The notes: a model not told the origin generated them from the letters alone. DNA of 64,000 nucleotides from a virus (IMGVR_UViG_3300048834_000246:3969-67968); one strand, 5' to 3'; positions 7,795 to 64,000 are shown, counted from the first letter of the stretch. Made by a program: numbers and translations.

Positions 7795-7799
7795 AATAT

Positions 7800-7872: not shown

Positions 7873-7887
7873 CCCAAAAGTATCTAT

Positions 7888-7959: not shown

Positions 7960-7964
7960 CTAAT

Positions 7965-8039
7965 GCGCTAGTCGTATAACGGCTATTACCGCAGTTTTCC
8001 AAACTGCCGATCAGAGTTCGATTCTCTGCTGGCGCTCCA
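7965..8039 (+). tRNA. tRNA-Gly(TCC)
   Basis: GCGCTAG/CTGGCGC stem, loop TTTCCAA, TCCA end. Confidence 0.9.
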
Positions 8040-8040
8040 C

Positions 8041-8118
8041 GCATCCTTAGCTCAGACTGGTCAGAGCGGCTATCTTGTAAATAGCGGGTCAAGTGTTCGA
8101 ATCACTTAGGATGCTCCA
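8041..8118 (+). tRNA. tRNA-Thr(TGT)
   Basis: GCATCCT/AGGATGC stem, loop CTTGTAA, TCCA end. Confidence 0.9.
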
Positions 8119-12821: not shown

Positions 12822-13370
12822 ATGGATACGCGTATCGCTCATTATACCCGAAAAGCTCCGTCCTTTGACGAAGTTAAGGTCGAACAATTTCTCACATTCG
12901 TAGCTTTGGGTTACTCGTTTTTGGAATCGTGCGAACGGGCTGACCTTAGCAAAGATACGGTTCGCACTTGGATCAACAAAGGGGGAAACCCCAGAGGTCG
13001 TTCTAAACGAGCGTGTGCGTCTCACGTCCACGTAGAACCCTATTATACGTTTGTTCAACGCTATTTGGAAGCAAAAGACAAGGGACTTCGTAGAAACCCT
13101 CCTGGGGCACCTCATGGGCGGCGACCAAAAGAGATTACCGACGAACAAAAAACGCTTCTGCTTAACGCTATTCGTGAAGGCTGGTCGTATCAAGCAGCGT
13201 GTACAAAAGCCGGTGTTTCCCTCTCCACCTTCGTTTCTTATTTACGTTTAGGTGGCTATCCCCGTAAAATCTCTCCGTACAGAACAATCCACGAAGATCA
13301 TGTACAAGAACCCTACAAGTCGTTTGTAAAAGATATTATACAAGCAGAGGACGAATACTTTGTCTCGTAA
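12822..13370 (+). CDS. tandem-HTH protein related to the small terminase
   Basis: Two internal repeats G.S....C..A..S..T......GG...EPY..FV. Confidence 0.65.
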   Translation: MDTRIAHYTRKAPSFDEVKVEQFLTFVALGYSFLESCERADLSKDTVRTWINKGGNPRGRSKRACASHVHVEPYYTFVQRYLEAKDKGLRRNPPGAPHGRRPKEITDEQKTLLLNAIREGWSYQAACTKAGVSLSTFVSYLRLGGYPRKISPYRTIHEDHVQEPYKSFVKDIIQAEDEYFVS

Positions 13371-13890
13371 AAAAACATTCGACCCGGATAAGGTAATTGA
13401 AGATGTAGAACGGACAAGCCCTCTTGCAAAACGAATGGCGTTAGTTAAAGAAGTCCATCCTGAACGCTCACCTGTTTCTGGAACGTTGTTTGGTATTAGC
13501 GCGGAGCAACGAGTATTACTGTGCGATGCGCTACGGGCGGGTAACTTTAGAAAAACGGCTTGTAATCTTGCGGGAGTAAGTTATACAACATTTAATTCGT
13601 GGATGAAGCGTGGTGGTGATGGAGACGACGGTGAATTAGAAGAGTATGATGAACCGTATAAATCCTTTGTGTTAGACGTGCGTGTAGCCGAAGCGGAGGG
13701 GGAAAGTCATCTTCTTTCAATTATCTCTGGTGCGGCGTTGACCGATTGGAAAGCCGCAAGTTGGATTCTAAATAAGCGTAATAAAGAACACTGGTCGGAT
13801 ACCGACAAAACCTCCATCCAGGTAGGAACAACCGGAGGCGTTTCTATTATTCTCCCGAGCAATGGCCGGGAACTTGAAAAGGGCAAGTAA
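13360..13890 (+). CDS. terminase small subunit (putative)
   Basis: HTH ACNLAGVSYTTFNSW, A..DWKAASWIL; upstream of the large terminase. Confidence 0.7.
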   Translation: MSRKKTFDPDKVIEDVERTSPLAKRMALVKEVHPERSPVSGTLFGISAEQRVLLCDALRAGNFRKTACNLAGVSYTTFNSWMKRGGDGDDGELEEYDEPYKSFVLDVRVAEAEGESHLLSIISGAALTDWKAASWILNKRNKEHWSDTDKTSIQVGTTGGVSIILPSNGRELEKGK

Positions 13891-46652: not shown

Positions 46653-49060
46653 GGGTTTTCTCTAAGCGTTTCAAGAAGTGCGCGTCGAATGTTTGTGTCT
46701 CGGAATGCTAGAGCTTTATTCACAGCGGTATCAATACTATCTTTTGCAAGGACATTGATAACACGAACGCGTGACGTTTGACCAGCACGCCTGGCTCGGG
46801 CGATAGCCTGTTGAATGGTACTCGGTAGGTAATCCTGTTCCGCGAACAGTAACAAGCTGCTGTGCTGCAAGTTCACGCCTTCGGTGAGGGATGCTAACGT
46901 AGCAACAATAATTCCATTATCCCTCGTTTTCCACTCTTCAACAAGTCGGTTACGCTCGGTTGTTGCCATACCGCCACGAATTTCGTACACAGGTCGGTCA
47001 TCGTTTTTCTCACGCAAATGACGTGCAATCATCTGGCACGTTCCTCTGAACCACGTAAACACAATTGCAGGTTCTAGTTCGTGGTCATCCAGGTATTCGG
47101 AGATAATAGAAACCTTTGGATTTTCTTTTAACTCTCCTACAATCGCACCGTCTTCAACCACAAACCCCGCTGTAAGCTGCCTAAGCTTTGCTACCAGGGC
47201 ACCTCCGCTACTAATAGCTACAGGATCGTCCAAATCAGGATGCTCAATAAACCACTCCTTCTTAGCAGTATCATGTGCTTTTCTCATGCTCGGCGGCATA
47301 TCGAATACATGATTTGTTTCTAATGGAAGATCAGTCCACGCAGGAATAACCCCCGTGCGGTTGAATTCTTCGTTGATAACTGTTTCATAGTTACGACGCA
47401 ACATATAGTTGTTAAGCATATCTGCAAACGCTACTTCAAGGTCAGGATTAACACCCTTAATAATCGTTGTCCACGGTGTCGTTTCCGTTTCACACCAAGT
47501 GCCAACAAATTTCCAGTACGAAGAAAACTTCACCCGGTCGATGATACGAAGTAACGGCCACAAATCTCCTGGGTTGTTGACGATAGGGGTACCCGTAAGC
47601 ATCCAAAAGTAGTCGGACTTTATCTTCAATATGTTCTTTGTCCACTGACTCTTTCTTCCTCGAAGACGGTGGGATTCATCAGCGATAACCGCTCCCCACG
47701 CATAGGTAAGAAGTTCAGGGTGTTTCTTCATGCCTTCGTTCATAAACATATGATAGTTGACAATAACCCACCCTGTAAACTCTTTCGGAACCGGCGCATC
47801 TTTCCTGGCGACAATCATCCACGGAACATCCGGAGAATAGGCAGAGATAACAGTGCCCCACTGTTCCAAAAGATACGGTGGGGCAATAATGAGTTTTCTT
47901 TTGTTACTGGCTATATCATTCCCCGCGCTTACCGCCGGGAAGGAATTGTGTGTAACGATAAAATCATTGGTAACGTATAGATGATCTTTAGCATCAACAG
48001 AAATACATTGAGCTTTTTTAGTTCCAACAAACTCAATCCCAGAAACTTTTCTCATAGGAAAATACTTTGTTCGAGGTGAGTATTGACATAATTTTTCGTA
48101 AACAAGAAAAGGCTGTATCGTATTAGGAAGTGAAGGAATAACCCGATATGACGGTAATCCCTGCTTGCGCTCACCCTTGTAGGTAAACCACGAATTAGTT
48201 CGCGGGGTTACTCGTGCAACACCCCCAAGACTTTGAATCAAAAAAACAACCCCCTCGGATAGTTTCTTCGATGTTGTTGAATATTCAATTGTAGAATTAC
48301 CTACAACACTACCATCGCTATCCAATAACCCTTGGAGTAACGAGACTCGACTATTTACCGAATTTAGAAGAAGTTCTTCGGGAATAAATTTATCATAGGA
48401 GTGTTTCTCAGACAAACCAATTGAACGAATATACTCTAGCAATATATTTACAGACACGCCTTTTTTTCGTCTAATTGTATAGTCATAAGAGTTATTTTTG
48501 TTTAGTTCCAAAGTGTTTGGCAAACGTTCAACGATCATGTCCCGCACAGTATCGTTGGGTACTGACACCGACACTCTTTTTCGGCCAAAATGACCGTTTC
48601 CTAAAAGGTACCCCATAACCCACGGGTCAATTACAGTTCGCTTTTCCGTAAACTGTACTGGATCAACCAGAGGTACTTGAATGTTTTGAGGAATTAGTGC
48701 AGCAAGATCGGTTGTTTTTACAATACGGCTACATTTTCCGTCTCTACGCATAGTCTTTGTTGTAACAGACCATAGATGGTCCGCGTCACATTCTGTATGC
48801 GTTCCATCATTGAATAACACGCGGAAAACAGGTCTTTCCCCTTGTGGGTAAACACCAGTAACTGTTGTTGGGTAGCCGTTTTTTCCAATTACTACTGTTC
48901 CAACCTTAACATTCTCCATACGAGTATAACCGGTAGGAGTAAGCACAAGAGCGTCTAATCCTTGTGCTTTCCCCATCCCCGGCTCGTCTGCAAGAATGCT
49001 TGAAGGATGTTTCAGAAGAAACTCTCTCGCCTCCTTCTGATAGTCCCACAACGTAATCAT
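46649..49060 (-). CDS. SNF2-like SF2 helicase (intein-containing)
   Basis: YQ, ADEPGMGK|S, DESH, LTGTP, EGVNLQ, QAIARARRAGQ. Confidence 0.9.
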   Translation of the reverse strand: MITLWDYQKEAREFLLKHPSSILADEPGMGKAQGLDALVLTPTGYTRMENVKVGTVVIGKNGYPTTVTGVYPQGERPVFRVLFNDGTHTECDADHLWSVTTKTMRRDGKCSRIVKTTDLAALIPQNIQVPLVDPVQFTEKRTVIDPWVMGYLLGNGHFGRKRVSVSVPNDTVRDMIVERLPNTLELNKNNSYDYTIRRKKGVSVNILLEYIRSIGLSEKHSYDKFIPEELLLNSVNSRVSLLQGLLDSDGSVVGNSTIEYSTTSKKLSEGVVFLIQSLGGVARVTPRTNSWFTYKGERKQGLPSYRVIPSLPNTIQPFLVYEKLCQYSPRTKYFPMRKVSGIEFVGTKKAQCISVDAKDHLYVTNDFIVTHNSFPAVSAGNDIASNKRKLIIAPPYLLEQWGTVISAYSPDVPWMIVARKDAPVPKEFTGWVIVNYHMFMNEGMKKHPELLTYAWGAVIADESHRLRGRKSQWTKNILKIKSDYFWMLTGTPIVNNPGDLWPLLRIIDRVKFSSYWKFVGTWCETETTPWTTIIKGVNPDLEVAFADMLNNYMLRRNYETVINEEFNRTGVIPAWTDLPLETNHVFDMPPSMRKAHDTAKKEWFIEHPDLDDPVAISSGGALVAKLRQLTAGFVVEDGAIVGELKENPKVSIISEYLDDHELEPAIVFTWFRGTCQMIARHLREKNDDRPVYEIRGGMATTERNRLVEEWKTRDNGIIVATLASLTEGVNLQHSSLLLFAEQDYLPSTIQQAIARARRAGQTSRVRVINVLAKDSIDTAVNKALAFRDTNIRRALLETLRENP
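47945..48967 (-). mobile_element. class 3 intein with a LAGLIDADG endonuclease (341 aa)
   Basis: Starts AQGLD, ends VTHN|S; DHLW, AQCISV and VTHN give the WCT triplet; GYLLGNG and GLLDSDG motifs. Confidence 0.9.
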
Positions 49061-49061
49061 G

Positions 49062-49364
49062 TTAATCCTTTCGAAAACGAAGAAACAACAGGAATCTATT
49101 CCAGGTACGACGATACCACCAATACGGTTCGTGGTCGAATTGCACACCTTGAATCAACGACTCTACAATTGAGTCATAAGGAATATGCCTCCCGCTTTTC
49201 TCGTAAATTTTCGCTGCGTATTCCGTTAACGCAATGGCATTTGCAACCTTTCGCACATCCATTGTGCCGTGTTCAATTGCCAAATGCAACATATCTAGGT
49301 CGCTATATTTTTGCTGGTATGGATTTGACTCGTCATTGAGCCAACGCTCAATGACATTTACCAT
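49062..49364 (-). CDS. hypothetical protein (100 aa)
   Basis: Operon packing. Confidence 0.65.
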   Translation of the reverse strand: MVNVIERWLNDESNPYQQKYSDLDMLHLAIEHGTMDVRKVANAIALTEYAAKIYEKSGRHIPYDSIVESLIQGVQFDHEPYWWYRRTWNRFLLFLRFRKD

Positions 49365-49555
49365 GAAAAGTTCATTCCTGCGTTGAATCCGTACCCAACC
49401 GCGAAGCTAAAGATAACAACGAAAACGAGAATAAACGAGAGATACAGTGCAAAAGTAAGAAAGATACTTAGAAAGAAAATAACTCTTTCCAAAAGTCGAA
49501 AGACCCCTAAAACAATTGCCCATAGCGCCCCTGCGATAGCTAATAGAAAATTCAT
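49358..49555 (-). CDS. small membrane protein
   Basis: Two hydrophobic helices. Confidence 0.65.
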   Translation of the reverse strand: MNFLLAIAGALWAIVLGVFRLLERVIFFLSIFLTFALYLSFILVFVVIFSFAVGYGFNAGMNFSW

Positions 49556-49950
49556 TAGTTTGTTTCGCTTTCCGGCGCTGCTGCAAGAAGTTCTTGACCT
49601 AACGCCAACAGTTTACTTACATTATCAACAATTCCGATTCGGTAATCCTCGGGAAGATTTGAAATTACATCGTCTAGGTCCGCAAGCATAGGCTCAAATA
49701 ACAAGGATCGAACATCGTCTGGTGTATATCCTGCTGCAATAAGAAGCATGTTTCGTTCTCGATCTTCTAAATTTAGTGCGCTAGAAAGACTATACACCAC
49801 AGCCCGACTAGGACTCCCACGTTTGTTTAGCTCTAAAAGCGACACATACGAATCATGCAATCCCGCATCTTCCGCTACGCGCTTTTGCGAGAGTTGTTTA
49901 TCTGTTCGAAACGCGTGAAGAATATTTCCAAAGTTAAGATTCAAATTCAC
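49555..49950 (-). CDS. XRE-family HTH regulator
   Basis: FG..L...R....LSQ..VA..AGL..SYVS.LE...R..PS; AGGAG RBS before GTG 49950. Confidence 0.85.
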   Translation of the reverse strand: MNLNLNFGNILHAFRTDKQLSQKRVAEDAGLHDSYVSLLELNKRGSPSRAVVYSLSSALNLEDRERNMLLIAAGYTPDDVRSLLFEPMLADLDDVISNLPEDYRIGIVDNVSKLLALGQELLAAAPESETN

Positions 49951-50176
49951 TTCTCCTAAGCAGTTTTCTCTGCTTCCTATCTCGCCCGGTGTGGTACTTT
50001 TTACAATAAGAACATCGGTATACATTGTACTTCTGATTGTAAGTTGCTTGAAGCCTTTTCGCTTCTCGTCGCGCTACTTGCTTACTATCGTAATCAACTT
50101 TTGAATAGCATTGTTTATACGCTTTTTGGAATGACCAAGCAGAGAAATAAAGTGTGCTATCCTTAAGCAACGCCAT
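49934..50176 (-). CDS. small basic Zn-binding protein
   Basis: C..K..Y...VYRCSYC..YH. Confidence 0.65.
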   Translation of the reverse strand: MALLKDSTLYFSAWSFQKAYKQCYSKVDYDSKQVARREAKRLQATYNQKYNVYRCSYCKKYHTGRDRKQRKLLRRSEFES

Positions 50177-50403
50177 TAGAATCCTCTCCTACGAACTCCA
50201 TTGATTCGATCTTCTTCTCGTAGCCACATTTCTTCTGGTCGCCACCCGAGAACAAACATCCTGCACAGGCGTCTGTACCCGAGTGTTTCGTAATAACGTT
50301 TGAATACGGCTCTCACATCGTCAGCGGTTTGGCACGCGTTCAAATCTTGCTGTGCCGCTCGTAATGAACCAAATGTAAGCGGTTCTTTTTCTTGTCTCGG
50401 CAT
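50176..50403 (-). CDS. hypothetical protein (75 aa)
   Basis: First gene after the promoter at 50440-50468. Confidence 0.65.
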   Translation of the reverse strand: MPRQEKEPLTFGSLRAAQQDLNACQTADDVRAVFKRYYETLGYRRLCRMFVLGWRPEEMWLREEDRINGVRRRGF

Positions 50404-50439
50404 ACTAACCCTTTCAATTAGTACAATTATTTAAGTGCT

Positions 50440-50468
50440 AGTATACCTTTTCTATTAGAAAATGTCAA
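50440..50468 (-). promoter_or_regulatory. sigma70 promoter
   Basis: TTGACA-17-TATACT. Confidence 0.8.
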
Positions 50469-50471
50469 CAC

Positions 50472-50900
50472 TTACGGATCGTATACACATGTACCGTCTG
50501 ACCGATACTGATTAACGTCGAACTCTAGGAGATACATTAGCCCTAGTGCATCGAACAATTCTCGGTCAGACTCATTTAGAAAATCTTGAAGAGCAATTAT
50601 TTGCACGCTATACCCATGATCCCGTAACCCAATCAACGTGTCTGCAATAAACCGGTATCGGCGGCGGTCTGACAACCCTGGGCCATACTTGTCGAATGCC
50701 TTCGGAATAGAGAGGCAGGAAATACGGTTCTCCGTACACTGTTCACGAATCCTTTCCGATAAACCATCTTCCGGATGAAAAATGACCAACGTATCTGTAT
50801 AGACGCGTTTGATAAGGTTCGTTTCAATAATATCCTCCCACTCTGTCGTCTGTCGTTCATTTGCTGAAACCACGTAGAAGACTTTACGCACGCTACACAC
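50472..50900 (-). CDS. hypothetical protein (142 aa)
   Basis: AGGAGG RBS at the integrase end. Confidence 0.65.
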   Translation of the reverse strand: MCSVRKVFYVVSANERQTTEWEDIIETNLIKRVYTDTLVIFHPEDGLSERIREQCTENRISCLSIPKAFDKYGPGLSDRRRYRFIADTLIGLRDHGYSVQIIALQDFLNESDRELFDALGLMYLLEFDVNQYRSDGTCVYDP

Positions 50901-51795
50901 CTCCTAGTGCCGTGTCCATGAAGTTCGCGGCGTCCACTTTCAGCGAGTCCACCACGCCACCGTAGCGCGAAGTCATGCGAATTGACGTGTGCCCGAACAA
51001 ATCCATCAGCGTCCGCTCTCCAACACCTTGTGCCCGAAGAATCGTACCGAACGCGTGTCGTAGTTGGTGGAGTCCCATTCCAGGAAGTCCCGCGCTGTCA
51101 AGAACATCTTGAAACGCATTATACACCCGGTGTGGATCAATTGGAAGACCCTTAGCCCCCGGAAAAATGTACCCTTCCGTCTTTTCTTGCCCCCACATAC
51201 CGGTGAGTAGGTCATACGTCGTCTTCGTCGTCGGTAGTAGCCGGATACTCGCAGCCGTCTTTGGCTCTTGTACAACGAGTCCCACACCATCGACTCGAAC
51301 CACTTGTCGTACCACACGTAGCGTTTTCTGCTCAAAATCAACATCCTCCCAACGAAGCGCACAGGCTTCTCCACGCCGGAGTCCTTGTGCCAACATGATG
51401 CGGATAACCGCTTCAAACTTGTTTCCTTTGAGCGATGCTAGGATTGCCTGTACATCGCTCATTGGAATTGCATCTACCGACTTACTAGGAACATGTACCT
51501 TTGCGGTCGCCTTCGTTACATTACGATCAATATATCCCCACGCAACCGCATCCTCAAACGCCTTACGGAGAATGGTCTGCATGAGTCGAATCGTGCTTGC
51601 CGCGATCCCCTTGTTTTGCATATACACGACAACCTGTGCCACATCCACCGGTGTAACGGAACTCATTTGCTTATCTCCAATCACCGGGGTAATATAATTA
51701 CGAATGTGGCACAGGTAATTTTGTGCGGTTCGAGTACGAACCGAAGTCTTATGAACCTCGATCCATTCAGCCATAAACTCGTGTACCTGCTTCAC
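50893..51795 (-). CDS. int: tyrosine integrase/recombinase
   Basis: GLRRGEA..L.W.DVDF, PKT, HQLRH, GH, catalytic Y; RBS before GTG 51795. Confidence 0.9.
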   Translation of the reverse strand: MKQVHEFMAEWIEVHKTSVRTRTAQNYLCHIRNYITPVIGDKQMSSVTPVDVAQVVVYMQNKGIAASTIRLMQTILRKAFEDAVAWGYIDRNVTKATAKVHVPSKSVDAIPMSDVQAILASLKGNKFEAVIRIMLAQGLRRGEACALRWEDVDFEQKTLRVVRQVVRVDGVGLVVQEPKTAASIRLLPTTKTTYDLLTGMWGQEKTEGYIFPGAKGLPIDPHRVYNAFQDVLDSAGLPGMGLHQLRHAFGTILRAQGVGERTLMDLFGHTSIRMTSRYGGVVDSLKVDAANFMDTALGGV

Positions 51796-51821
51796 TTGAA
51801 CCTCTCCTTTACTATGTGTCA

Positions 51822-51850
51822 AGTATACACGCTTAGCTGAACGGCGTCAA
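51822..51850 (-). promoter_or_regulatory. sigma70 promoter for the integrase
   Basis: TTGACG-17-TATACT. Confidence 0.75.
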
Positions 51851-51852
51851 GG

Positions 51853-53055
51853 TTATTCGGCGGCTTTCGTGTCGCCTTTAATCGTGATGATCGGTCGTAG
51901 CGTGTGCAGAATCGTCACGAGGTCTGCTTGATTCTCCATCACACGGTCAATGTCCTTGTACGCGCCAGGAGCCTCGTCTAGCGTTTCCCTAGACGCCCGT
52001 GAATAGGTGCCCTCCAATGACAACATAAATTCATCCATACCAATTGATCGCTTTGCAACGTTCCGTCCCATCGTTCTTCCCGCACCATGTGAGCTAGAAT
52101 TGTACGCATCAGCAACCCGTTTACTAGTTACCACATAGCTTTTCGTACCCATTGAGCCGGGAATAAACCCAACTGGAACCGGCGTCATCGCGCCTTTTCG
52201 GTGAACCCAAGAGAGTCCATTCGCCGTTTCTTCTTGAACAGCATAGTTGTGGGGTACATCGCGGATAAGATCGGTGTACTCAGCTCTTTCTAATCCTTTA
52301 TACTGAAGCGTGATCGTAAGTGCTTTCACCATATTTTGCATCATGCGGTACCTGTTCTCACTCGCATATGAAATTGCCCATTGCATATCCCGAGCATACG
52401 CTGACCCATATCCGACCTTTGACGTATCAAGATACGCTAAGTCTTTCGGATAGGACACACCTTTTCCGTCGCTGTAATCTTTCGCGGCCTCAGCATAGAA
52501 CGATGCAATCGTGTGACCGATGTTCCGTGATCCTGAGTGAACCGCCAACCAAATTGTATCCGTTTCAACATCCCGAAGTGCTTCGATGAAGTGGTTTCCC
52601 CCACCGAGCGTTCCGAGTTGGTGCCAGGCGCGGTCGTCTGCTCGTTTTTGAAGGTCCGGAGCGTTCAACCCCCAAACCTTAAACATATCCGGAATTGGCT
52701 GATCGTTCGCGTGGTGTGAAAATCCTACCGGAATAAGTTCCCGAACATGAGACTCCCACAGTTTCCAGAAATCTTCATTCAGCCAACCCGTGAGACGATA
52801 AGGCGTTTTTACATACGAAATTCCGCATCCAATATCAACGCCCACCGCGTTCGGAATGATAATGTTTTGTTTCGTTGGTAGAATCGTTCCAATAGGGACA
52901 CCTACGCCCAGGTGTGTATCCGGCATCACGGCAACGTGTCCGTTCAGATGCGGGTGGGTAGCGACATACTTAATCTGGTCAATCGTACCCGACTCGATTT
53001 CAGTCCAGTCAATCCACGTTTTAATTTTTCCGTCGCTGCTCGTATACATCGTCAC
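51853..53055 (-). CDS. rtcB: RtcB RNA ligase
   Basis: MPDTHLG, GVDIGCG, GTLGGGNHF, HSGSR, HN, HRKGA, PGSMG, SHGAGR, DEAPGAYK. Confidence 0.95.
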   Translation of the reverse strand: MTMYTSSDGKIKTWIDWTEIESGTIDQIKYVATHPHLNGHVAVMPDTHLGVGVPIGTILPTKQNIIIPNAVGVDIGCGISYVKTPYRLTGWLNEDFWKLWESHVRELIPVGFSHHANDQPIPDMFKVWGLNAPDLQKRADDRAWHQLGTLGGGNHFIEALRDVETDTIWLAVHSGSRNIGHTIASFYAEAAKDYSDGKGVSYPKDLAYLDTSKVGYGSAYARDMQWAISYASENRYRMMQNMVKALTITLQYKGLERAEYTDLIRDVPHNYAVQEETANGLSWVHRKGAMTPVPVGFIPGSMGTKSYVVTSKRVADAYNSSSHGAGRTMGRNVAKRSIGMDEFMLSLEGTYSRASRETLDEAPGAYKDIDRVMENQADLVTILHTLRPIITIKGDTKAAE

Positions 53056-53073
53056 GCTCCTTTACTGTAGTTA

Positions 53074-53349
53074 TTAAGAAACGACAAATTCTGCCATTAG
53101 TCGTTTTGTATTGGCAAACTCATGCGTCCACACTGGTCGCCCCATTAACTGTTCCATCCTCTTATGCATTACGTTGAACGGAACTTCGCACGTTTTTCCG
53201 GGTCCAGTGAAGAACCATTCAAGCTCGATCTTGCGTTCGTCTTTAGTCATTGTACCAGGATCAGAGCGGTTTTCCATTTCCTTTGTACAATCTTCACACC
53301 AACTCGGTGAAGCTGCACCGCACCATGAACAAACTCGTACCGTATCCAT
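53074..53349 (-). CDS. hypothetical protein with an N-terminal Zn finger
   Basis: CSWC..CEDC; MGRPVWTHEF motif. Confidence 0.7.
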   Translation of the reverse strand: MDTVRVCSWCGAASPSWCEDCTKEMENRSDPGTMTKDERKIELEWFFTGPGKTCEVPFNVMHKRMEQLMGRPVWTHEFANTKRLMAEFVVS

Positions 53350-53360
53350 GTTAGTCTCCT

Positions 53361-53603
53361 TTACTTGTGTCCGTACCCAGGACGCCCAAAGTACATGACT
53401 TTTCTTGAAATAATCTCGCTTCGAACCACCTCAATATCTTTGTCTAAATTGTACTCCAAGTCGGGGTGGATAGCAAGGATTGTTGGCTCCACCCCATACT
53501 TCTCTTGAAACCGGTACACCCCATATGCAAACGCCTCTTCTAAAGGTTTCTTAATCCGAGGCTGCATTTCAATTGCGAGGTACGTGAGGTCTGGAAGCGA
53601 CAT
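53361..53603 (-). CDS. hypothetical protein
   Basis: ATG overlaps the peptidase stop. Confidence 0.65.
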   Translation of the reverse strand: MSLPDLTYLAIEMQPRIKKPLEEAFAYGVYRFQEKYGVEPTILAIHPDLEYNLDKDIEVVRSEIISRKVMYFGRPGYGHK

Positions 53604-54880
53604 TAGGCAACGACCTTCCCGGTAATAATCGCCTTCGGGGGCCAATCATCCCCGAAGGTATCGTTCCGTCCAAATGTATCCTCGGTCGGAATGTAGTCCT
53701 GGCACACCATACAGAAGAAGTTCTCTTCGGTGGAGTCCCAATTCATGCAATCGTAGCCCTTGCACATCGGGCAAATGCCCACCGATCTATTCCATGCAAG
53801 TGATCGGTCTGTTTCATCATCATCAAACCCGTTCATATAACTGTCACCTTCTGATTCGGGCAGATACTTCTCAATAACCTCGGCTTTCATTTTAGCCGCC
53901 CGTTCCAGAAGTGTATCACGATCTGCGGCAACCACGTCGGCTACCGTCGCGGTTACTTTTGGTTTGGGGAAGGATGCCGGTTTAGATAGTGCCCGTTCCC
54001 ACGCTGCATCTTCTTTCCAGTACGAATCGTAAGAACCTTGTCGTGCGTCAAACATTCCCGTTTTCGGGTTCCACGTTTTGTACGAATAAGACCGCCGCGT
54101 GCTGCGAACCTTATCGACTTTGTGCTTCCACTTACGGAAACTCAGATTCTTACAAATCATGCGGAACAGATTCAGCGTATTTGCTACGTCGCTGATGCTC
54201 ACCATTTCGCTGTTCGTGTGCGGGTTGTAATACCCGGCTGAAACATTGGCACAGCTTACCGCAAGTCCCTTCGATTTCAACTCATACACATCCGTTAGGC
54301 TTCCGGCGTCGTACGGGGTAAACCCAAATTCACGAAGGAACGGTGCGATAGCTTCACCGAACGCGTCACTGTACAATTCGGTTCCACACGCGGTTCGAAC
54401 AAAGTCAGACGAACCTTTTCGATCTGCTTGCAAAACGAAAGACGAGTCCTTGAAGAAGCTCATATCGGCAGCGCCAGAGCCAACGCACCCAATTTCTTCA
54501 TCTACGAAGAAGGCAACCTTCACACTTTTCAACTCCGTAAGCAGTTGGAGAGCGATGAAAATTCCTACTTTGTCGTCTCCGCCAATACCTCTCGGTTGAA
54601 TGTTGACAGGATCAATTGCCAAGAGAATGTCATCTGCCTGAACAACCTTGAAGAAGCTATCCGGAACAATCCTGTGTACCGTATCCATGTGAGCTACGAT
54701 AGTCGGGAATACGTCGGCGGACCCTTTCTTGACATATAGGTTTCCGTCTCGGTCAACTTCCGCAACGAGTCCCATACTAAATACATAGTCCACGATGAAC
54801 TCACTAATCTTATCCATCTTCCCCGTATCGGACTGAATGGAAAGAATCTGCTTTAGCAATTTTGTGTTGATTGTGCTCAT
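53603..54880 (-). CDS. M28/M20-like Zn peptidase with a C-terminal Zn ribbon
   Basis: AHMDTVH, GGDDKVG, EEIGC.G, DRKG, TD, GYY.PH; CPMC...CMVC. Confidence 0.85.
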   Translation of the reverse strand: MSTINTKLLKQILSIQSDTGKMDKISEFIVDYVFSMGLVAEVDRDGNLYVKKGSADVFPTIVAHMDTVHRIVPDSFFKVVQADDILLAIDPVNIQPRGIGGDDKVGIFIALQLLTELKSVKVAFFVDEEIGCVGSGAADMSFFKDSSFVLQADRKGSSDFVRTACGTELYSDAFGEAIAPFLREFGFTPYDAGSLTDVYELKSKGLAVSCANVSAGYYNPHTNSEMVSISDVANTLNLFRMICKNLSFRKWKHKVDKVRSTRRSYSYKTWNPKTGMFDARQGSYDSYWKEDAAWERALSKPASFPKPKVTATVADVVAADRDTLLERAAKMKAEVIEKYLPESEGDSYMNGFDDDETDRSLAWNRSVGICPMCKGYDCMNWDSTEENFFCMVCQDYIPTEDTFGRNDTFGDDWPPKAIITGKVVA

Positions 54881-54907
54881 TCGCACCTCTCTTTCTCTGT
54901 TACTAAC

Positions 54908-54936
54908 AGTATACGCTAATACGTACTTTTTGTCAA
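54908..54936 (-). promoter_or_regulatory. sigma70 promoter
   Basis: TTGACA-17-TATACT. Confidence 0.8.
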
Positions 54937-54939
54937 GGT

Positions 54940-56457
54940 CTAGTGAAGCTGCCCGTACGTTTCAAGCGCTAACCTACAACTCTGACATAGTGATACGAGA
55001 CGCTCTTGGTAGTAAAATTCGTCGCTGTCAATACGGACAATATGGTTCGTTAAGGTTCTACCTGTATTAAGGCACAGGGAACACACCACACAGTCGTGAC
55101 AAAGGTCCATTAGCGGTCCTTCCTCGATGGTAAGTGACGGAAACAACGATGTTCGAATTGTTCGCTCTGAACGGATATTACGACTAAGCGGCTCATATGT
55201 ACCACAACTCTGACAGACGTTGTTCCGTATGCACGTATCACAAAGATAATGACCGTTTAAATCCTCTATAAGTGTCGAAGACACCGGATTTCCACAGTGG
55301 CACGACACTAACCCCGCAACGCTTTGTACGAAACAAGAGCGGCATTGTTTGGTAACACCGTCCCACGTTCGTACATTTCGTGAATCAACGCACTGACACG
55401 TTGAACATACGTGACGGTTTTGGCACGTAGGGCATAGTCCACCTACAATATCGCTTGGTTCGTAGTCCTGATAACACCACGTACAACGACGTGCTTGCAC
55501 ACACGAATAACAATAGTCTCCGTCTCCGTCCCTCACGATACCGCAATCCGCACATCGGCTAAGGCCTGGGTAGCCCTCAGTATTTTGCAGCGTGAACGTA
55601 AGCTCAGAGTCTCGTTGCCGCGAGTAGTTGGTGAGAACCCCCTGTGCCGTGTCTCCCTTTTTTTTCAGGGAAATATATTGAAACGTATCCATGTAAGGGA
55701 ACGCTTCAAACAAAGCATTGTCAATCGTCACACAGAAGGACTTCGTTTCTCTATAACCTTCTGGTGAGTACCATTTACGAGGGCTGTCATACGTTTGGTA
55801 CTGCTTGTGCCAAAACCCCCGCTCTTTCGCCCACGCCTTTACCGCCTCAACTGTGCTTCTTCGTCCATAGATGCGATCAACCAGGGTTTCCCCACTATCG
55901 GCTGTCCACACCAACGCACGCCCAATAATCTTACCGGTATTTGGCTTACTCACAATAAGCATTCGAATTTTATCGGGATTCTTCACGTACACATCAAAAT
56001 ACGGAGCGCACTTGTCGTAGCGCATACAGGAACTACGGAGCGATCCAGTATCTCCACCGCTGTAGTTTGCTCCATTATACCAATAACGAATGTCTTCCCC
56101 GGATACAAGCTCAAAAAAACAGGCTTTCCGTTCAACTACCGAGTCAAGCAGGTAAAGAAACCGCTCAATATCTGCATCCATTAGATAAACAAGAAACAGG
56201 GAACGAATAAGCCGCCCAGGTCGCATTGACTGTCGGCTAGAAGACGTGAAGTTAGCCTCGTCGTTATCAAAAACCTCTTTTGACACCGGAAGATATGAGA
56301 TTTCCCCTATAGAGGATTCCCAATCAAGATAATTTACGCGGTCGGACGTAACAAGGCTTGACGTAGGTGACAACAACGTGCGTGCAATCTGACACCCCCC
56401 ATCAAGTTTATTAACCTCTGTAAGAAGTTCCCGCAACCGATCCGTCATTTTCAACAC
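54940..56457 (-). CDS. SCM/DRIYG/PYMD-motif phage protein with a Cys-rich tail
   Basis: GSLRSSCMRY, GRALVW, DRIYG, FPYMDTF; many CxxC pairs. Confidence 0.8.
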   Translation of the reverse strand: MLKMTDRLRELLTEVNKLDGGCQIARTLLSPTSSLVTSDRVNYLDWESSIGEISYLPVSKEVFDNDEANFTSSSRQSMRPGRLIRSLFLVYLMDADIERFLYLLDSVVERKACFFELVSGEDIRYWYNGANYSGGDTGSLRSSCMRYDKCAPYFDVYVKNPDKIRMLIVSKPNTGKIIGRALVWTADSGETLVDRIYGRRSTVEAVKAWAKERGFWHKQYQTYDSPRKWYSPEGYRETKSFCVTIDNALFEAFPYMDTFQYISLKKKGDTAQGVLTNYSRQRDSELTFTLQNTEGYPGLSRCADCGIVRDGDGDYCYSCVQARRCTWCYQDYEPSDIVGGLCPTCQNRHVCSTCQCVDSRNVRTWDGVTKQCRSCFVQSVAGLVSCHCGNPVSSTLIEDLNGHYLCDTCIRNNVCQSCGTYEPLSRNIRSERTIRTSLFPSLTIEEGPLMDLCHDCVVCSLCLNTGRTLTNHIVRIDSDEFYYQERLVSLCQSCRLALETYGQLH

Positions 56458-58236: not shown

Positions 58237-58262
58237 GCGCCTCTCCTTTTCTTGTTACACTC

Positions 58263-58291
58263 AGTATACACGACAATCAGTCAAGTGTCAA
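58263..58291 (-). promoter_or_regulatory. sigma70 promoter
   Basis: TTGACA-17-TATACT. Confidence 0.8.
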
Positions 58292-58749
58292 GGAGTAGGG
58301 CTTCTGAAAGCCCGATGATAATTGTTTAAATCATTTTCTTCGATAAATGCTACTCTAACCGTCCCATCTTCAATAGCGGTTACAATTCCATGACAATTAG
58401 AACAAAGAACAATACACTTATTCATTTCGTCACTCAACGATTTAATACTTCCATAGGAAAGTCCCCGAGACACATTAAATCGCTTATGCGTTCTGTCCAG
58501 GTGATGAAATTCCAACACAGCTAATCTCGTATCTCCACACATCACACACCCACCACTCTCACGTAAGCGAGTGAATACCAGTTCCACATTACGTAGTCTA
58601 TGAAAATCATTAGCTATGCCATGCTGATTTTTTGGTTGCATCTTTATTAAGTTTGAACACTTGATACAACTTTTTTTACGAATATACCCTCGTACTGTTG
58701 TAAATTCAGATAATGGTTTAGTCCCAGCACAATGAATACACGTTCTCAT
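58288..58749 (-). CDS. HNH endonuclease
   Basis: CIHC..KPLSEF..CIKC; CVMC..LEFHH..EMNKCIVLCSNCH; AT-rich. Confidence 0.85.
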   Translation of the reverse strand: MRTCIHCAGTKPLSEFTTVRGYIRKKSCIKCSNLIKMQPKNQHGIANDFHRLRNVELVFTRLRESGGCVMCGDTRLAVLEFHHLDRTHKRFNVSRGLSYGSIKSLSDEMNKCIVLCSNCHGIVTAIEDGTVRVAFIEENDLNNYHRAFRSPTP

Positions 58750-58796
58750 TTACGACCCCCGCTACTATAAACACACAATATTATAGAATATAATCT

Positions 58797-58918
58797 CCGC
58801 GCCCCGAATTGGTCAATATTGTGGGGTAAAAGTCCGCGCCCCATTTTCTAGAAAAATTGCCGCGCCCCAAATTCGGGTTTAGAAAAAAAGTCAAAAGCTG
58901 TAGAAAAAAAGCCGCGCC
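58797..58918. repeat. four CCGCGCC direct repeats with A/T-tract flanks, preceding an AT-rich tract
   Basis: Copies near 58797, 58834, 58860 and 58912. Confidence 0.7.
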
Positions 58919-59423
58919 AGAAATTGAAGACTTCAAAAAAAGTGCATTATCGTACTATGGAGCCAAAAAATAAGATAAGAATGTAGTACATAAGCGTATA
59001 GCAACATCTATGTATATACTGCATACTACACTAGTAGGTAATACCTACTATACATAGTATGTATACACACATATATACTATATAAGAAAAAAAAGGAAGA
59101 AAAGAGGGGAAAATCCAATCAGCAACCCAATTCCAATCAACAGAATTTCTAATTTTTTTTTGATTAAGTGAGCAATAAATCCAGGGGAAATAACTAAACT
59201 TAATATAATTAGGAAATATAAGTAAATAACCTAATATAGAAAACTTAAGATATAACCTTAAACTTAAGGTAAACTTAATCTAAATTAACCCCCCGGAAAT
59301 ACATGAAGCGCTAGCGCTAGCGCTATTATAAATTATTAGGAAATAAACACAAGAGGATGGTTAAGACCAAACAAAACAAAAAACTTTAAAAAAAATAAAA
59401 ATCGGGAAAACCAGGCCGCGAGA

Positions 59424-59752
59424 ATTGGTCCGACAACCGAACCAATTTTCCCAGGTTGTTCATTGGTCCGACCAATATACCAATTTTCAAAATTGGTTCA
59501 TTGGTCCGACAACTGGACCAATTTTCCAGGTTGTTCATTGGTCATACCAATATACCAATTTTTCCAGGTTGTACATTGGTAGGACAACTAGACAAATTAC
59601 CTGGATTGGTTCGGTTGTCCTACCACCGGACCAATTTTCAAAATTGGTACATTGGTATGACCAATAAACCAATTTTTCCAACTGAGAAAATTGGTCTGAC
59701 CAATGTACGATTTGGTACTCGCATGGAAATTGGTCCGGACAACATTGGTTCG
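59424..59752. repeat. array of ATTGGT-N3-AC(C/A)A(A/C)T palindromes, about 38-bp period, 9 units
   Basis: Units at 59424, 59462, 59500, 59537, 59575, 59613 (inverted), 59651, 59690, 59728. Confidence 0.9.
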
Positions 59753-60239
59753 AACATATCGCGTATATCCTGGTAATCGTCCGAACATTTAAACCCGTGC
59801 TAACGAGGTGAGAGACACAGACACAGACACAGACACAGAGAAACCTGGGTAGCGTCTGTACCCTGGTTCGTGTGTCACCTCGTTACCTGGCCAGAGACAA
59901 AACCCCTAAAACCGCATACTCTAAACGTTTCACACAGTGAAACTATGTCTGTAACGCGTGAAAACCGCCCTGGTTCGCGTTTACCCCTAAAACCGCACAA
60001 ACATACCCTAACGCGGTTTAACCTCGTTAGGGTGTCTTTCTGCGTGTCTGATAATGTGTCTGTGTCTCACCTCGTAACGGTTTCTGTGTTTCGGGGTTTA
60101 GGCTGTACCCCGGTTTCGGGGTAAACCCGTGTACGGGGGTTCCCTGGTTCCCTGGTTACGAGGTGAGAGACACAGAGAAACCCCTAACCCGTAGGGGTTA
60201 GGGGTTCGCGGGTTACGCGGGTTACGCGGGTTACGCGGG

Positions 60240-62462
60240 TTACGCGAACGATAGTTGTACTGGGGTTTCGTTCCACACCCTACTGCTGTAGCGGTTTTGA
60301 TATGCACGATGATTGCGTATCACCGATGCCACATCATACCCAGCGTTAGCGGTTTCTTCATCGTTTCGCGGCTGTGTGTGTGCATATCGCCCGTCAAGTC
60401 TCACATACGAAGAGTATCCGCTATACCCGAACATTGACAGGCTACGCGGTTTACAGACGGTGCAATAGGCGCCGTCTTCAAAACGCGAACGAGGTTCGCC
60501 ACAATGTAAACACGGGGTAGCGTTCATGCACTCGTTACACAGTGGCGTGCTGTCGGTTTCATCGCCGCACATTTCACAGTGCGTTGCGTAACACGCTGGG
60601 CATACGTCACCCGACAACTCCGCGTGCCATTGCAAAACGTCTGCGTCGTTTTGCAATTCCCCACACTGCGAACACGTAGACGTATCCGCACAGACTTCAC
60701 AGAGATTGCGATAATCGCCCGTAACGGTTTCTCGTTCCTCGGTGCTGTACTCGTACTCCCCACACGATTCACAGATACCGCTACCGTAGCAGTCTTCACA
60801 GAGATAATCGCCGTGCGGGGTAAACATATCGTCGCGGTCGCCCGTGTACCCGCACTGCGAACACTCTACCCCGGTAACTTCATAGTTACCGTCTGTGCCA
60901 GTGAGACTGCGGAAACCGACACTGTAGAACGCCTGAAGACGTTCTAAACCGGGGTGGAAGTATGCATACGAGTCCATATAAGGGTAATACCCCGTTTCGG
61001 ACGGTTTCATATGCAACCAGGACTGATATACCCGCGTGCTGTACCCGTGTTCGGATGCAAACGCGTTAATCGCCGCCGTTACGGTTTCGTTACCGTAAAT
61101 GCGATCTATGTAACGGTCGCCGTTCGGGGTAGTCCATAACAGAGAACGTCCGTAAATGGTTCGATCTTCATCGACGCAAACGAGGATAGAAACCGTGCCA
61201 GGGTTTTCCGCGTACCATCGTACATAGTCTTGTGCATAGCCGTATCGCATACACGAACCGTGTAGCGAACCAGTCGTAATCCCGCGAACATAGTTACCCT
61301 CGTGATACGCGTACAGAATGTCATCTCCGGACCATTCTTCGATATGTGTCGGTAGCGGGGTAAACGCTTTCGTAAACCGATGCGCTACGGTTTCGATTGT
61401 GGCGTCTGTCACCGCGATGTTAAGTGTGTTAACCAGTTTTCGTAGAAACCGCCCGTACTTCATTTTCTTTCGGGGTACGGTAGCGGGTTTCGTATCCTCG
61501 TTATACGAAACGTACCCGTCGTCATTGCATCGAAACGCGTACCCGATAGCCGGTGGTATCGAGTTACATACGAGGTCAATCACCTCGTACTCGGCTTCTG
61601 TGTACACGTCCCGCATAAGTGCATCACGAAGGTCGTACACGTCGGGGTTAATCCACTGTCTAATAAACGTACCCGAACCAGGAAACGCTAGGTGATTCTC
61701 ACCCAAGACGGTTTCGCCGTGATTAATCGCCGCATACGCGTATGACGGACCATACACGGGGTCATTGACGGTGCGAACACGCAAGCTATAGACGCGATTA
61801 GCGTCTGTCATTTTCCGATACCCCGAACCCGCTACCGTGTCTTCCCCGAACACGAACACAGACGGGGTAAAACACGCGTCAAAATATGTTTGTATCGCAC
61901 CCTTAGCGGCGTATGTCGCGTCCTCGTATGTCGTCAACGATGGTGCAGAAACGCGCCAGAGGGACGGTAAAACCGCGTCACGTACAAACGTGTACGCGTG
62001 CTGGGTGACCAGCACGGGGTAGGGGTCTTCATATGACCTCCGTGCGGGTTCATCAAACACAGTGATCGTTACCGCATGATTGTCTTTATCTGTAGCGGTT
62101 TTACGCGTGACGATAAACGACCGGTGCCCGCTAGGTTGCAGCGTGAAACCGGTTTCCTGGTTCCACAATTCCGACACGGAAACCCCGTCACCGAACGAAC
62201 CTACATACGCGGTCGCCGCGGTGCGAACGTCGGGGTACTGCGTGTAATCGAGGGTCGTAACGGTTTCGAACGTTTGAAACAGTTGCATGCTTTTCACCTC
62301 GTTAGACGTGTTCGCGGTTTCGTTCGTGAATCCGGTTTCGTTCGCGTTCATTTGTTTTGCCTCCGTTTCTGTGTTCGCGTTTTCGCATTTTTCCGAACAG
62401 AAGTAGCTATACGGTCTAGTGACCTCGTTTCCACATGTCGGGCAGGTCGGTTCTTCGTTCAT
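60240..62462 (-). CDS. SCM/DRIYG/PYMD-motif protein with Zn-ribbon repeats (paralog of 54940-56457)
   Basis: GSLHGSCMRY, GRSLLW, DRIYG, YPYMDSY; many CxxC pairs. Confidence 0.8.
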   Translation of the reverse strand: MNEEPTCPTCGNEVTRPYSYFCSEKCENANTETEAKQMNANETGFTNETANTSNEVKSMQLFQTFETVTTLDYTQYPDVRTAATAYVGSFGDGVSVSELWNQETGFTLQPSGHRSFIVTRKTATDKDNHAVTITVFDEPARRSYEDPYPVLVTQHAYTFVRDAVLPSLWRVSAPSLTTYEDATYAAKGAIQTYFDACFTPSVFVFGEDTVAGSGYRKMTDANRVYSLRVRTVNDPVYGPSYAYAAINHGETVLGENHLAFPGSGTFIRQWINPDVYDLRDALMRDVYTEAEYEVIDLVCNSIPPAIGYAFRCNDDGYVSYNEDTKPATVPRKKMKYGRFLRKLVNTLNIAVTDATIETVAHRFTKAFTPLPTHIEEWSGDDILYAYHEGNYVRGITTGSLHGSCMRYGYAQDYVRWYAENPGTVSILVCVDEDRTIYGRSLLWTTPNGDRYIDRIYGNETVTAAINAFASEHGYSTRVYQSWLHMKPSETGYYPYMDSYAYFHPGLERLQAFYSVGFRSLTGTDGNYEVTGVECSQCGYTGDRDDMFTPHGDYLCEDCYGSGICESCGEYEYSTEERETVTGDYRNLCEVCADTSTCSQCGELQNDADVLQWHAELSGDVCPACYATHCEMCGDETDSTPLCNECMNATPCLHCGEPRSRFEDGAYCTVCKPRSLSMFGYSGYSSYVRLDGRYAHTQPRNDEETANAGYDVASVIRNHRAYQNRYSSRVWNETPVQLSFA

Positions 62463-63233
62463 TTGTTACACCCCGTGTCACTTTGTTACTTTGTGCCGAA
62501 ACCCGACACAAAACGAGGATAAACGAAAACCGGACAAAATGTCAATCTATGCGACCTGGTTTCGGTTTTGTTCGCTTATATGGAAGATACCTCGAAACCC
62601 TGGCCAGACTGAAGCTATCACCTCGTTACTGATATATCGTCTCATTAAGGCTACATCACCCTGGTTTTCACTCCGAAACACGCGTAAACCGTCTGTAAAT
62701 GAAGTAGGGGTATCCGCAGGTCAAATGACACGCGTACACGTTTACAACGCGTCTACGGTGCCTTAAAACGCGTTCTAGGGGTATATCCGGTTGACTGCGT
62801 GTCTGTGTTTCCTGGTTTTAGACGGTTTCGGGGTTTTAGCCTACTTCGGGAAAATAGGCGAAACCGGACTGCCTGGTACGTTTTATGCGGTCGTTACCTG
62901 GTTTTAGCTTAGAAGTATCAGAACCCGCGAAAACCGCGTAGCGTGTTTACCGCGTTTTCTGTGTTCTCTAACCCTGGTTCTAACGAGGTGAGATACAAAA
63001 CCCGAAACCGTTACACACTGTGTAGCGGTTTCGGGTTTCCTGGTTTCGGCGTCACCTCGTTACCGTCGTTTCAATTGACAGAGTGTCCATAGGTCATCTG
63101 ATACGTGCAAACCGGATAACGCGTCTACGGTGCCTTAAAACGCGCCACAGACGCATAGCGGGGTTTCTAACGAGGTAAAAACAAGCACATTTTACCAGGC
63201 AAATTACCGCTTAATGACAGTACCTCTGTCTTT

Positions 63234-63262
63234 TGTGGATATGTGGATAACTTTGTTGATAA
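63234..63262 (-). promoter_or_regulatory. cluster of three DnaA-box-like sites
   Basis: TGTGGATAT, TGTGGATAA (perfect TTATCCACA on the - strand) and TGTTGATAA. Confidence 0.6.
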
Positions 63263-63884
63263 CAATAGTTCTTTATCTCATTGTATAGAATAGTTGTGTA
63301 GCAGCTACTTAAGTATATCCTGGTTATGATTCACTACTCTAATGTTCCGATGTACACAGGGTTCAATACCCTAATGATTTACCCTGGTAACTATCGCCCG
63401 GTTACTATCGCCTGGTTACAATTAGGGTATAGAACGTTTCGGTATCCGTAGGGGTTTTGTACACTAGGCTTAGTATTGTTTCGTTACTTATCCCTGGTTA
63501 CATATTTGTGCTAGTCGCCTGGTTTCGCCTGGTTCTCTGTGTTCTCTGTGTTCTCTGTCCTCGTTACTGCCTGGTTACTATCGCCTGGTTTCGGTTTCGG
63601 TTTCGAGGTATCGCCTGGTTCGGGGTACGTAGGGGTTTAGGTTCGCGGGGTATCTGGCACTCTGTGAAACGAGGTTGATAAAGCGTGCTATACGTAGGGT
63701 TTAGGGTAAAGACTTATCAGGACAAATAAAACAAATTGGTACGCAGGATTGGTACTACTTCTAAACAAGTTAACTAGTTTACTATTTACAGACGCCTATA
63801 CGGTTATATTTAGATATCAGCATATCGTGATATTCATATCATCATATCATCATATCTAGATATACATATATCTTCATATTGTTT

Positions 63885-64000
63885 ATTGGTATGACCAATT
63901 AACAGCTGGCCTGGGCCTGGTACCGGGTCTGACCAATGTACACATATTGTCAGTATGTGTATTGGTAGGACCACTTATGTCAAATTGGTCAATTGGTAGG
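63885..64000. repeat. second ATTGGT-N3-ACCAAT array (runs off the window edge)
   Basis: ATTGGTATGACCAAT at 63885, GGTCTGACCAAT near 63926, ATTGGTAGGACCAC at 63961. Confidence 0.8.

Follow-up and report, generated by a model that had tools for sequence, protein, structure and literature searches.

A conserved, mostly untranslated repeat region around a single gene in a 68-kb siphovirus: a possible protein-bound control domain next to the genome end

The contig IMGVR_UViG_3300048834_000246 represents a 67,968-bp siphovirus (phage G000), and the window analysed here comprises its bases 3969-67968, a stretch of 64,000 nucleotides. At the right end of the window, a stretch of about 6 kb consists of nested repeat arrays around a single gene, P0001. 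We read this stretch as a conserved, mostly untranslated control region of the 68-kb phage. By analogy with the untranslated repeats found in the terminal repeat of phage T5, it may be a domain of early control that is bound by proteins and lies beside the genome end, a reading that we put forward tentatively as a real possibility. The evidence comes from the layout of the region, from its conservation in a relative, from the coding sequence of P0001 and from exact matches to operator sequences. Positions are window coordinates unless they are marked as belonging to the contig, to the relative G001 or to an L-numbered record.

The order of elements proposed by the first-pass annotation was recovered at the same positions. 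A left ATTGGT/ACCAAT array (59424..59750, 22 half-sites with a 38-bp period) is followed by an untranslated word zone (zone L, 59761..60239), by P0001 on the minus strand (60240-62462, 740 aa), by a second untranslated word zone (zone R, 62463..63700) and by a right ATTGGT/ACCAAT array. The right array has 13 half-sites in all, at 63735..64000 and at contig bases 224-268, and it runs into the contig start because the contig ends overlap by 223 bp. Between the two palindrome arrays, the inner domain of one gene and two word zones measures 3.9 kb, and the leftward and rightward gene arms diverge from the region as a whole. Zone L contains CCTGGTT, TAACGAGGTGA in both orientations, (AGACAC)4.5, (GGGTTACGC)5 and long inverted repeats, with folding z scores of -6.4 on the minus strand and -7.0 on the plus strand. 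In zone R, CCTGGT is found nearly always on the plus strand, together with GGTTTCG, hairpin pairs of TAACGAGGTGA, ACGCGT, (GTTCTCTGT)3 and (GGTTTC)3.

Words were counted over the whole contig on both strands, and the copies were assigned to a 4.9-kb region consisting of the window from 59400 onward and contig bases 1-300, with both overlap copies counted. This region holds 41 of the 83 copies of ATTGGT, 22 of 31 of CCTGGTT, 21 of 30 of GGTTTCG, 36 of 83 of GAAACC and 48 of 152 of ACGCG. AACGAGG(TGA) had been described as occurring about ten times in both orientations; the two orientations hold, while the counts are 15 of 21 for AACGAGG and 6 of 6 for TAACGAGGTGA (two on the plus and four on the minus strand). 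In a sliding-window check the k-mer profile is distinct from the genome background, as had been predicted. The number of repeated 8-mers per 1-kb window exceeds three times the genome median in nine of nine consecutive windows starting at 58533-62533. Five windows are flagged outside that run, namely the first kilobase of the contig, which contains the rest of the right array, and four that fall in the tRNA block and in a GC-rich gene of 1095 codons.

The same architecture is present in G001, a syntenic 67,645-bp IMG/VR contig from another sample, so that two lineages are compared. Between G000 and G001, the terminase is 75%, the head protein 71% and the polymerase 64% identical, most other genes are 33-70% identical, and the orthologs of the enclosed gene, which has 824 codons in G001, share 33-36%. 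Between the orthologs of gene 56929 and ThyX, the equivalent parts follow in the same sequence in both phages. In G001 these are GCGCGCC/A-run words (GCGCGCGCC words with A-runs, L020 8110-8250), a TATATA block (L020 8320-8420), an array of CCGGAAAG, a word zone, the ortholog of P0001, another word zone, an array of ATATC and the motif GGGGCACCCCCC; an AT-rich island with TTGTCCACA lies at L020 8800-8930. Repetition of 8-mers is raised here as well, with twelve consecutive 1-kb windows (47501-53001) above three times the median and a sole other flagged window starting at 3001. An assembly chimera can be ruled out because the relative from another sample has the same layout. The end overlap of the G001 contig, 127 bp, lies in the primase gene, which means that this contig is broken elsewhere.

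Only two non-coding blocks can be aligned between the two phages. One is a sigma-70-type promoter on the minus strand (TTGACA-17-TATACT, 58259..58293, 11/12 consensus) that faces the leftward early and replication genes and has 33 of 36 bases in common with G001. The second block is the ATATC array; its core GATATCAGCATATCGTGATA, identical in 20 of 20 bases, is the best conserved non-coding DNA of the region. All remaining non-coding parts keep their position, with words that mostly differ between the phages. Strand-biased words enriched in both are CGGTTTCG and CGGGGTA. The plus/minus counts of CGGGGTA are 11/4 in G000 and 12/2 in G001, and those of GGTTTCG are 17/4 and 11/4, where about 0.3-0.5 would be expected from the rest of the genome. 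The shared words have no extended consensus around their copies, and their positions in the orthologs are mostly non-homologous, with 3 shared columns among 36 marked positions in G000 and 14 in G001. The dinucleotide signature of the domain differs from that elsewhere in the same direction in both phages: CpG is 1.50 vs 1.22 (G000) and 1.61 vs 1.17 (G001), GT/AC 1.42 vs 1.05 and 1.57 vs 1.07, AG/CT 0.68 vs 0.85 and 0.44 vs 0.82, and TA 1.14 vs 0.82 and 0.99 vs 0.75. Alternating purine-pyrimidine runs of at least 8 occur 7.6 vs 3.3 times per kb in G000 and 12.8 vs 3.7 times in G001, a Z-DNA-like property that we give as description only.

The enclosed gene had been suspected to have an unusual composition and to be under extra sequence constraint, and both suspicions are supported. 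P0001 has a G+C content (GC) of 0.52 and a third-position value (GC3) of 0.58, while other open reading frames (ORFs) of at least 600 nt have a GC3 of 0.28-0.54, except for 531-3818 (0.57). We permuted synonymous codons within each gene in 200 shuffles, preserving protein and codon usage. P0001 contains 2362 repeated 7-mer pairs compared with 1000 ± 69 in the shuffles (z 19.8), and it has 377 8-mers in common with its flanks compared with 157 ± 16 (z 13.6); neither value was reached by any of the 200 shuffles. For the G001 ortholog the corresponding z values are 25.8 and 16.8, again reached by 0/200 shuffles. Twelve controls were included. The paralog P0002 (54940..56457, minus, 505 aa) had been proposed earlier and was confirmed, with 29% identity over 384 aa and E 2e-29. 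Being free of a word field, it served as the internal control in the synonymous-site comparison, giving z 0.7 and -0.1; eight other G000 genes gave z values of at most 4.1 and three G001 genes of at most 4.5. The excess is present in both halves of P0001, the lineage-variable N-terminal and the conserved C-terminal one. For example, 11 of the 13 Glu-Thr pairs are encoded as GAA-ACC, where codon usage predicts about a quarter. A word-by-word test agrees with this result; since its words were picked after seeing the gene, the codon-shuffle test and the two-halves test are the unbiased ones.

We take the word field in the gene to be selected, because a passive foreign signature should not survive the divergence of the orthologs. 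Words without any function, belonging to an island of foreign composition or consisting of short repeats spread by slippage, template switching and gene conversion and tolerated at synonymous sites, would agree with the distinct dinucleotide signature and GC3, with the many short tandem arrays and with the turnover of word positions. However, the signature and two identical words persist in spite of the low identity of the orthologs, and the flanks are not gene remnants. We searched both flanks for decayed gene copies with P0001-P0005 and rejected this origin: the best tblastn match has E 0.005 over 29 aa, and blastn gave only words of 12-16 nt. We regard an absence of function as highly improbable. 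Two further candidates were rejected. TAACGAGGTGA is not a ribosome-binding site, as the phage genes mostly use AAGGA/AGGAG and no start codon follows its copies. A mobile element with terminal inverted repeats does not fit either, since the best inverted repeat across the domain has 26 nt at 73% and the gene is at the same place in G001.

The strand bias of the words has to be considered separately. CCTGG occurs 25 times in the domain of G000 compared with 4 times for CCAGG, and GATC is depleted. The G/T-rich words have a strong bias towards the plus strand, whose 3' end is the right end, and judged by the geometry of Chi recognition they could be read by an enzyme acting on DNA ends or translocating on DNA, be it as Chi-like sites against RecBCD/AddAB at the right end, as KOPS-like guides or as priming sites for the lagging strand. 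That CGGGGTA and GGTTTCG have the same bias in both phages would fit this, and the turnover of positions would agree with a function that depends on density. To our knowledge, though, none of the words equals a Chi sequence. Moreover, many words occur in either orientation and as hairpins, there is no mirror-image cluster at the left end, and the genome end at this place is no more than probable. We consider such a role of the words very unlikely.

The outer arrays are built from a 38-bp unit, in which a 15-bp palindrome, ATTGGT-N3-ACCAAT, has an extra half-site 8 bp out on either side. Perfect ATTGGTnnnACCAAT units alternate with half-degenerate ATTGGTCCGACAAC units. Perfect ATTGGTnnnACCAAT is found at 59462, 59537, 59651 and 59690 in the left array and at 63885, contig 215-229 and contig 253-267 in the right array, and these seven copies, all inside the arrays, are the only ones in the non-redundant genome. 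In Escherichia coli the PdhR box is (A)ATTGGTnnnACCAAT(T), according to Anzai et al. 2020 (PMC7660256), and Table 1 of that paper has one 14/14 site only, at the pdhR promoter. The seven array sites match 12/12 specified bases of the 15-bp PdhR consensus. PdhR-type sites with at most one mismatch number 7 in the window compared with 0.22 expected, a value reached by 0/100 shuffles. The related LldR box is given as AAnTGGTCnGACCAnTT in PMC10272880, and it is also fitted by two array sites, ATTGGTCCGACCAAT and ATTGGTCTGACCAAT.

The arrangement of these sites differs from that in E. coli, where the PdhR operators are single, located at promoters and represented by only one 14/14 match to the 17-bp form. 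In the phage they form two arrays with a 38-bp period and overlap no recognised promoter. When 2.9 million viral contigs were scanned for the exact pattern, only 2 others contained two such boxes 15-45 bp apart. In an unrelated AT-rich viral contig of 59 kb, two perfect ATTGGTnnnACCAAT copies (L113 174-240) flank an AT-rich stretch upstream of a gene near the contig start. A literature search found no paper linking PdhR to phage DNA.

Two kinds of protein come into question as binders of the arrays. A search of the phage in six frames revealed no GntR domain at E <=1. The first rightward gene (contig 827-1315), which adjoins the right array, encodes a winged-helix protein (model pLDDT 67), and its model matches the MarR family (PefR, E 9.8e-3, probability 0.98) and the RacA-DNA complex (TM score 0.67 normalised to the target, root-mean-square deviation (rmsd) 2.3 over 60 columns). 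In front of this gene, at L026 560-790 at the contig start, an operator-like family, CTTTTGCAAAGT / CTTTTACCAAGT, occurs in 4 copies with inverted partners. We slightly favour a host regulator of the PdhR/LldR type over the phage winged-helix protein as the putative binder of the arrays, because the winged-helix gene has its own CTTTTGCAAAGT palindromes in front.

If the phage protein binds ATTGGT instead, the region could be a purely phage-internal hub, in which the arrays are operators of phage regulators for two divergent early units, the identity with the PdhR box is convergence, and DNA entry and the genome end play no part. The modelled winged-helix fold of the first rightward gene product would suit this explanation, and so would the further lineage-specific CTTTTGCAAAGT palindromes. 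Both the winged-helix gene and the ATTGGT arrays are missing from G001, which has a different small gene and a different array in the two slots. On the other hand, a place directly upstream, such as that of CTTTTGCAAAGT, is the more usual one for a gene's own operators, and an exact 12/12 match of seven sites to a known host consensus is unlikely by chance. The word field in the gene and the DnaA boxes described below would also be left unexplained. We think this explanation rather unlikely.

Inside zone R, an AT-rich island recognised by eye (63170..63320) contains three DnaA boxes on the minus strand (63234..63262), ATATCCACA, TTATCCACA and TTATCAACA. TTATCCACA is the only perfect DnaA box of the genome and has a one-mismatch box on each side; the first two boxes overlap by one base and the last two are 3 bp apart. 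Thus 3 of the 21 matches with at most one mismatch in 67.7 kb are located within 29 bp. The equivalent island of G001 has one one-mismatch box only. The first-pass annotation had spoken of protein-coated DNA; the exact matches to an operator consensus, the PdhR box, and this DnaA-box trio lend that view an indirect support, drawn from motif matches.

The boxes also raise the question of an origin of replication. In iteron replicons the rep gene lies between two arrays, as in P1 (incC-repA-incA) and F (incB-repE-incC), and in phage lambda the origin is located inside gene O. As in these replicons, binding-site arrays enclose a single gene, and alongside lie DnaA boxes and an AT-rich stretch. 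P0001 could then be a new initiator flanked by its own arrays, with the island as the unwinding element and sites within the gene as in lambda. The cumulative GC-skew minimum at about 62 kb and the divergence of the gene arms would agree with this, although GC skew is confounded by gene orientation. Among the 68 ORFs no partition or Rep gene was found by PHROGs, and no other initiator or origin was recognised. However, the words have 7-11 bp, are irregularly spaced over 4 kb and occur also in the gene, in contrast to phased iterons of 17-22 bp, and the outer and inner arrays differ in kind. In addition, the protein does not look like a replication initiator. Its GNAT-like fold and LIM-like zinc ribbons belong to no Rep family by Pfam, PHROG or NCBIfam, and neither the 5-12 places per genome at which uncultured jumbo phages carry the family nor a paralog without word field would be expected of an initiator. 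We judge an iteron-type origin unlikely, and more doubtful than the phage-internal hub.

P0001 consists of an N-terminal zinc ribbon, a lineage-variable half (aa 1-330), a GNAT-like domain (aa ~330-500) and, at aa 530-675, some five LIM-like zinc ribbons. AlphaFold models aa 330-670 with confidence, whereas aa 1-270 are poorly modelled. By sequence, Pfam, PHROGs, NCBIfam and PDB returned nothing except the LIM-like zinc ribbons. Residues 370-478 align with GNAT folds in VIA-align at Z 4.8-6.5 (rmsd 2.8-4.4 over 72-111 residues), where a Z below 8 can reflect a common arrangement; Z is at least 5.0 for ranks 1-43, and GNAT-type chains or close look-alikes of them fill 49 of the 50 best rows. 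The best Foldseek match of the domain has E 0.026. Neither P0001 nor 63 aligned members matched Pfam GNAT at E <=1, no Pfam family covers the central domain, and at the expected acetyl-CoA-binding position the family consensus is GRALLW, without the glycine-rich motif typical of that site. The central domain has 2184 cluster representatives at E <=1e-3, and the only near-full-length homologue is P0003 (52% identity over 95% of length). Atlas clusters of similar structure are, among those seen, all viral and hypothetical, apart from a weak lead to PcfJ that Pfam did not confirm. The family is virus-only. Its distant members (L004, L005, L027-L031) have no repeat-rich windows at the gene. The paralog P0002 lies in a row (51853-56457, minus) with an M20-type peptidase/deacylase-like protein (53603-54886) and RtcB (51853-53055), an order kept in G001. 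The neighbourhood of a GNAT-like protein, a deacylase-like protein and an RNA ligase may give a functional hint for the family.

Among known systems, phage T5 provides the closest comparison. The untranslated regions of its terminal repeat, as described in bioRxiv 10.1101/866236, show Matryoshka-like nesting of repeats and palindromes with a conserved layout, an HNH insertion, and pairs of DnaA boxes spaced by 3 bp, the TTATCAACA variant among them. For T5, a role of these regions and of the injection-stop signal in gating early expression or DNA entry has been proposed. As in T5, the DNA studied here is kilobase-scale, untranslated and near the end of a siphovirus with many genes for tRNAs, HNH proteins and nucleotide metabolism. 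It has nested direct repeats, inverted repeats and palindromes whose layout is kept among relatives, DnaA boxes of which two are 3 bp apart, with the TTATCAACA variant, and early genes with host-type promoters between the repeat regions. In contrast to T5, the repeat at the contig ends has 223 bp instead of 10 kb, there is one DnaA trio instead of eight paired boxes, the outer arrays consist of PdhR-type palindromes, and the words continue through a coding gene, a feature not described in the cited portion for T5.

Two more systems resemble the region in part. The stoperators of mycobacteriophages are many short asymmetric words in transcribed DNA, scattered genome-wide and bound by the immunity repressor (PMC9283540, in the part cited). 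The phage words likewise occur in many copies in transcribed DNA, and differ from stoperators, as characterised there, in being confined to 4 kb. Short imperfect repeats adjoin the contig-end repeat at the right end of our phage, where several word families extend over 6 kb with a gene inside. In T7 comparable arrays, tens of bases long, lie beside a terminal repeat of a few hundred bases.

The first-pass annotation had suggested a terminal or first-injected region, and in our reading the region probably adjoins a physical genome end. The first and last 223 bases of the contig are identical save for 1 mismatch; the last copy occupies 63778..64000, and it is either a direct terminal repeat or an assembly overlap. 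The IMG/VR record is classed as linear and 100% complete. The ATATC array (63806..63880, about 8.5 copies with an 8-bp period) lies 35 bp inside the overlap boundary, and we infer that it is the likeliest packaging or end signal. The end at the overlap could also be an assembly artefact. L022 (G003), a close relative of G001, stops inside the repeat zone (G001 48.1-48.8 kb) and lacks the following 11.5 kb.

In the reading that we prefer, a protein-bound early control domain, a winged-helix dimer would fill the outer arrays, with a host regulator of the PdhR/LldR type as first choice and the phage winged-helix protein as the alternative. The inside would be occupied by DnaA and at least one further factor reading CGGTTTCG and CGGGGTA. 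Jointly, these binders might build a bracketed nucleoprotein domain, by which early expression, and perhaps DNA entry as well, would be gated from this end. The arrays could act as roadblocks or insulators answering to the ligand of the regulator, and as a side effect they might serve as a sink that titrates the regulator away from host promoters.

Several observations weigh against this reading. The ATTGGT arrays are absent from G001, where an array of CCGGAAAG takes the slot, and so is the winged-helix gene; as the two vary together, a phage-encoded binder is favoured. The contig-end overlap contains a mismatch and ends on the right in the middle of a palindrome, and relatives' contigs also break in such repeats, where assemblers tend to break, which weakens the equation of contig end and genome end. 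The region shows no enrichment of sigma-70-like promoter matches (5 vs 9.8 expected). No sequence similarity to T5 was found by blastn against 50,697 phage records, and 59300-64000 matched none of them. Finally, the words inside the coding sequence and their strand bias are not explained by the proposed domain.

A bolder version would give these words a central place. The region would then be an end-proximal, strand-polar word code of 4 kb that overrides synonymous choice and is bracketed by about 14 operators of a host pyruvate sensor, and host metabolic state and a word reader would together decide on entry or switching-on of the first gene and of the remaining genome. We think that this is unlikely, slightly more so than the phage-internal hub. 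If true, it would be a new kind of protein-coated DNA domain, with a conserved layout and words co-evolving with their readers.

With this region, a lineage other than T5 joins the few phages that have extensive, conserved and untranslated repeats close to a genome end. Should a PdhR-type regulator of the host bind the arrays, the phage would either sense the carbon status of the host or soak up a low-abundance repressor of pyruvate dehydrogenase and respiration. Moreover, P0001, with synonymous sites set by a word field at DNA or RNA level that is kept between phages despite the divergence of the protein, offers a tractable case of overlapping codes.

Some further features accompany the region. 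To its left, CCGCGCC(CC) words occur in 3-4 copies at 58800..58945, each beside an A-run, as read by eye and from the repeat listing. CCGCGCC(CC) or GCGCGCGCC words, with an A-run before each and a copy about every 50 bp, lie just upstream of the leftward gene block in both phages. In G000 they are followed by a TA/CA-alternating AT-rich block (58980..59090, read by eye) and by 300 bp of AT-rich spacer up to 59400; the GC of 59001-60000 is 0.38. At 60202-60246, (GGGTTACGC)5 follows GGGGTTAGGGGTT and overlaps the stop codon of P0001, and the plus-strand G3-4 runs here have G-quadruplex potential. A promoter-like site for P0001, TTGACA-18-TATCCT (62516..62545, minus, 10/12), is a consensus match only and lies 54 bp upstream of the start codon; a TTGACT...TACATT site was found by eye upstream of the G001 ortholog. 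None of the small ORFs of the flanks has a counterpart in G001. Known RNA families gave just two far sub-threshold matches of miRNA type in the region, and no tRNA is located there.

The remaining genes identify a tailed phage. Its plus strand carries two small-terminase-like genes and those for large terminase, portal, major head protein and tape measure. The minus strand encodes, at 35.8-58.7 kb, a family-A DNA polymerase, helicase/primase, Sak4-like annealase, exonuclease, ribonucleotide reductase (RNR), RtcB and an XerC/D-like tyrosine recombinase, and the genome further contains 17 tRNA genes, ThyX and several HNH endonucleases. Among the 50,697 phage records there is no near relative, the large terminase being at most 48% identical. 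A host search based on RNR did not point to a host, its homologues being 53-60% identical across many phyla. The second compositional outlier of the genome is the ORF 531-3818 (plus strand, 1095 codons, GC 0.57), which shows internal repetition (z 4.1), belongs to no PHROG family, has matches to FlgD-tudor/DUF5666 below threshold only, and gives no tblastn match in G001. The tRNA block (4226-8118, all 17 genes) is broken up by HNH endonuclease genes at 5896-6297, 6885-7259 and 8155-8601. Two genes reported by ARAGORN as tRNA-Stop with anticodon TTA (5620-5691 and 7250-7323) are possible ochre suppressors. The small-terminase-like genes form an adjacent pair at 12822-13890 (plus strand, 182 and 176 aa); both belong to phrog_4102 and both are also present in G001.

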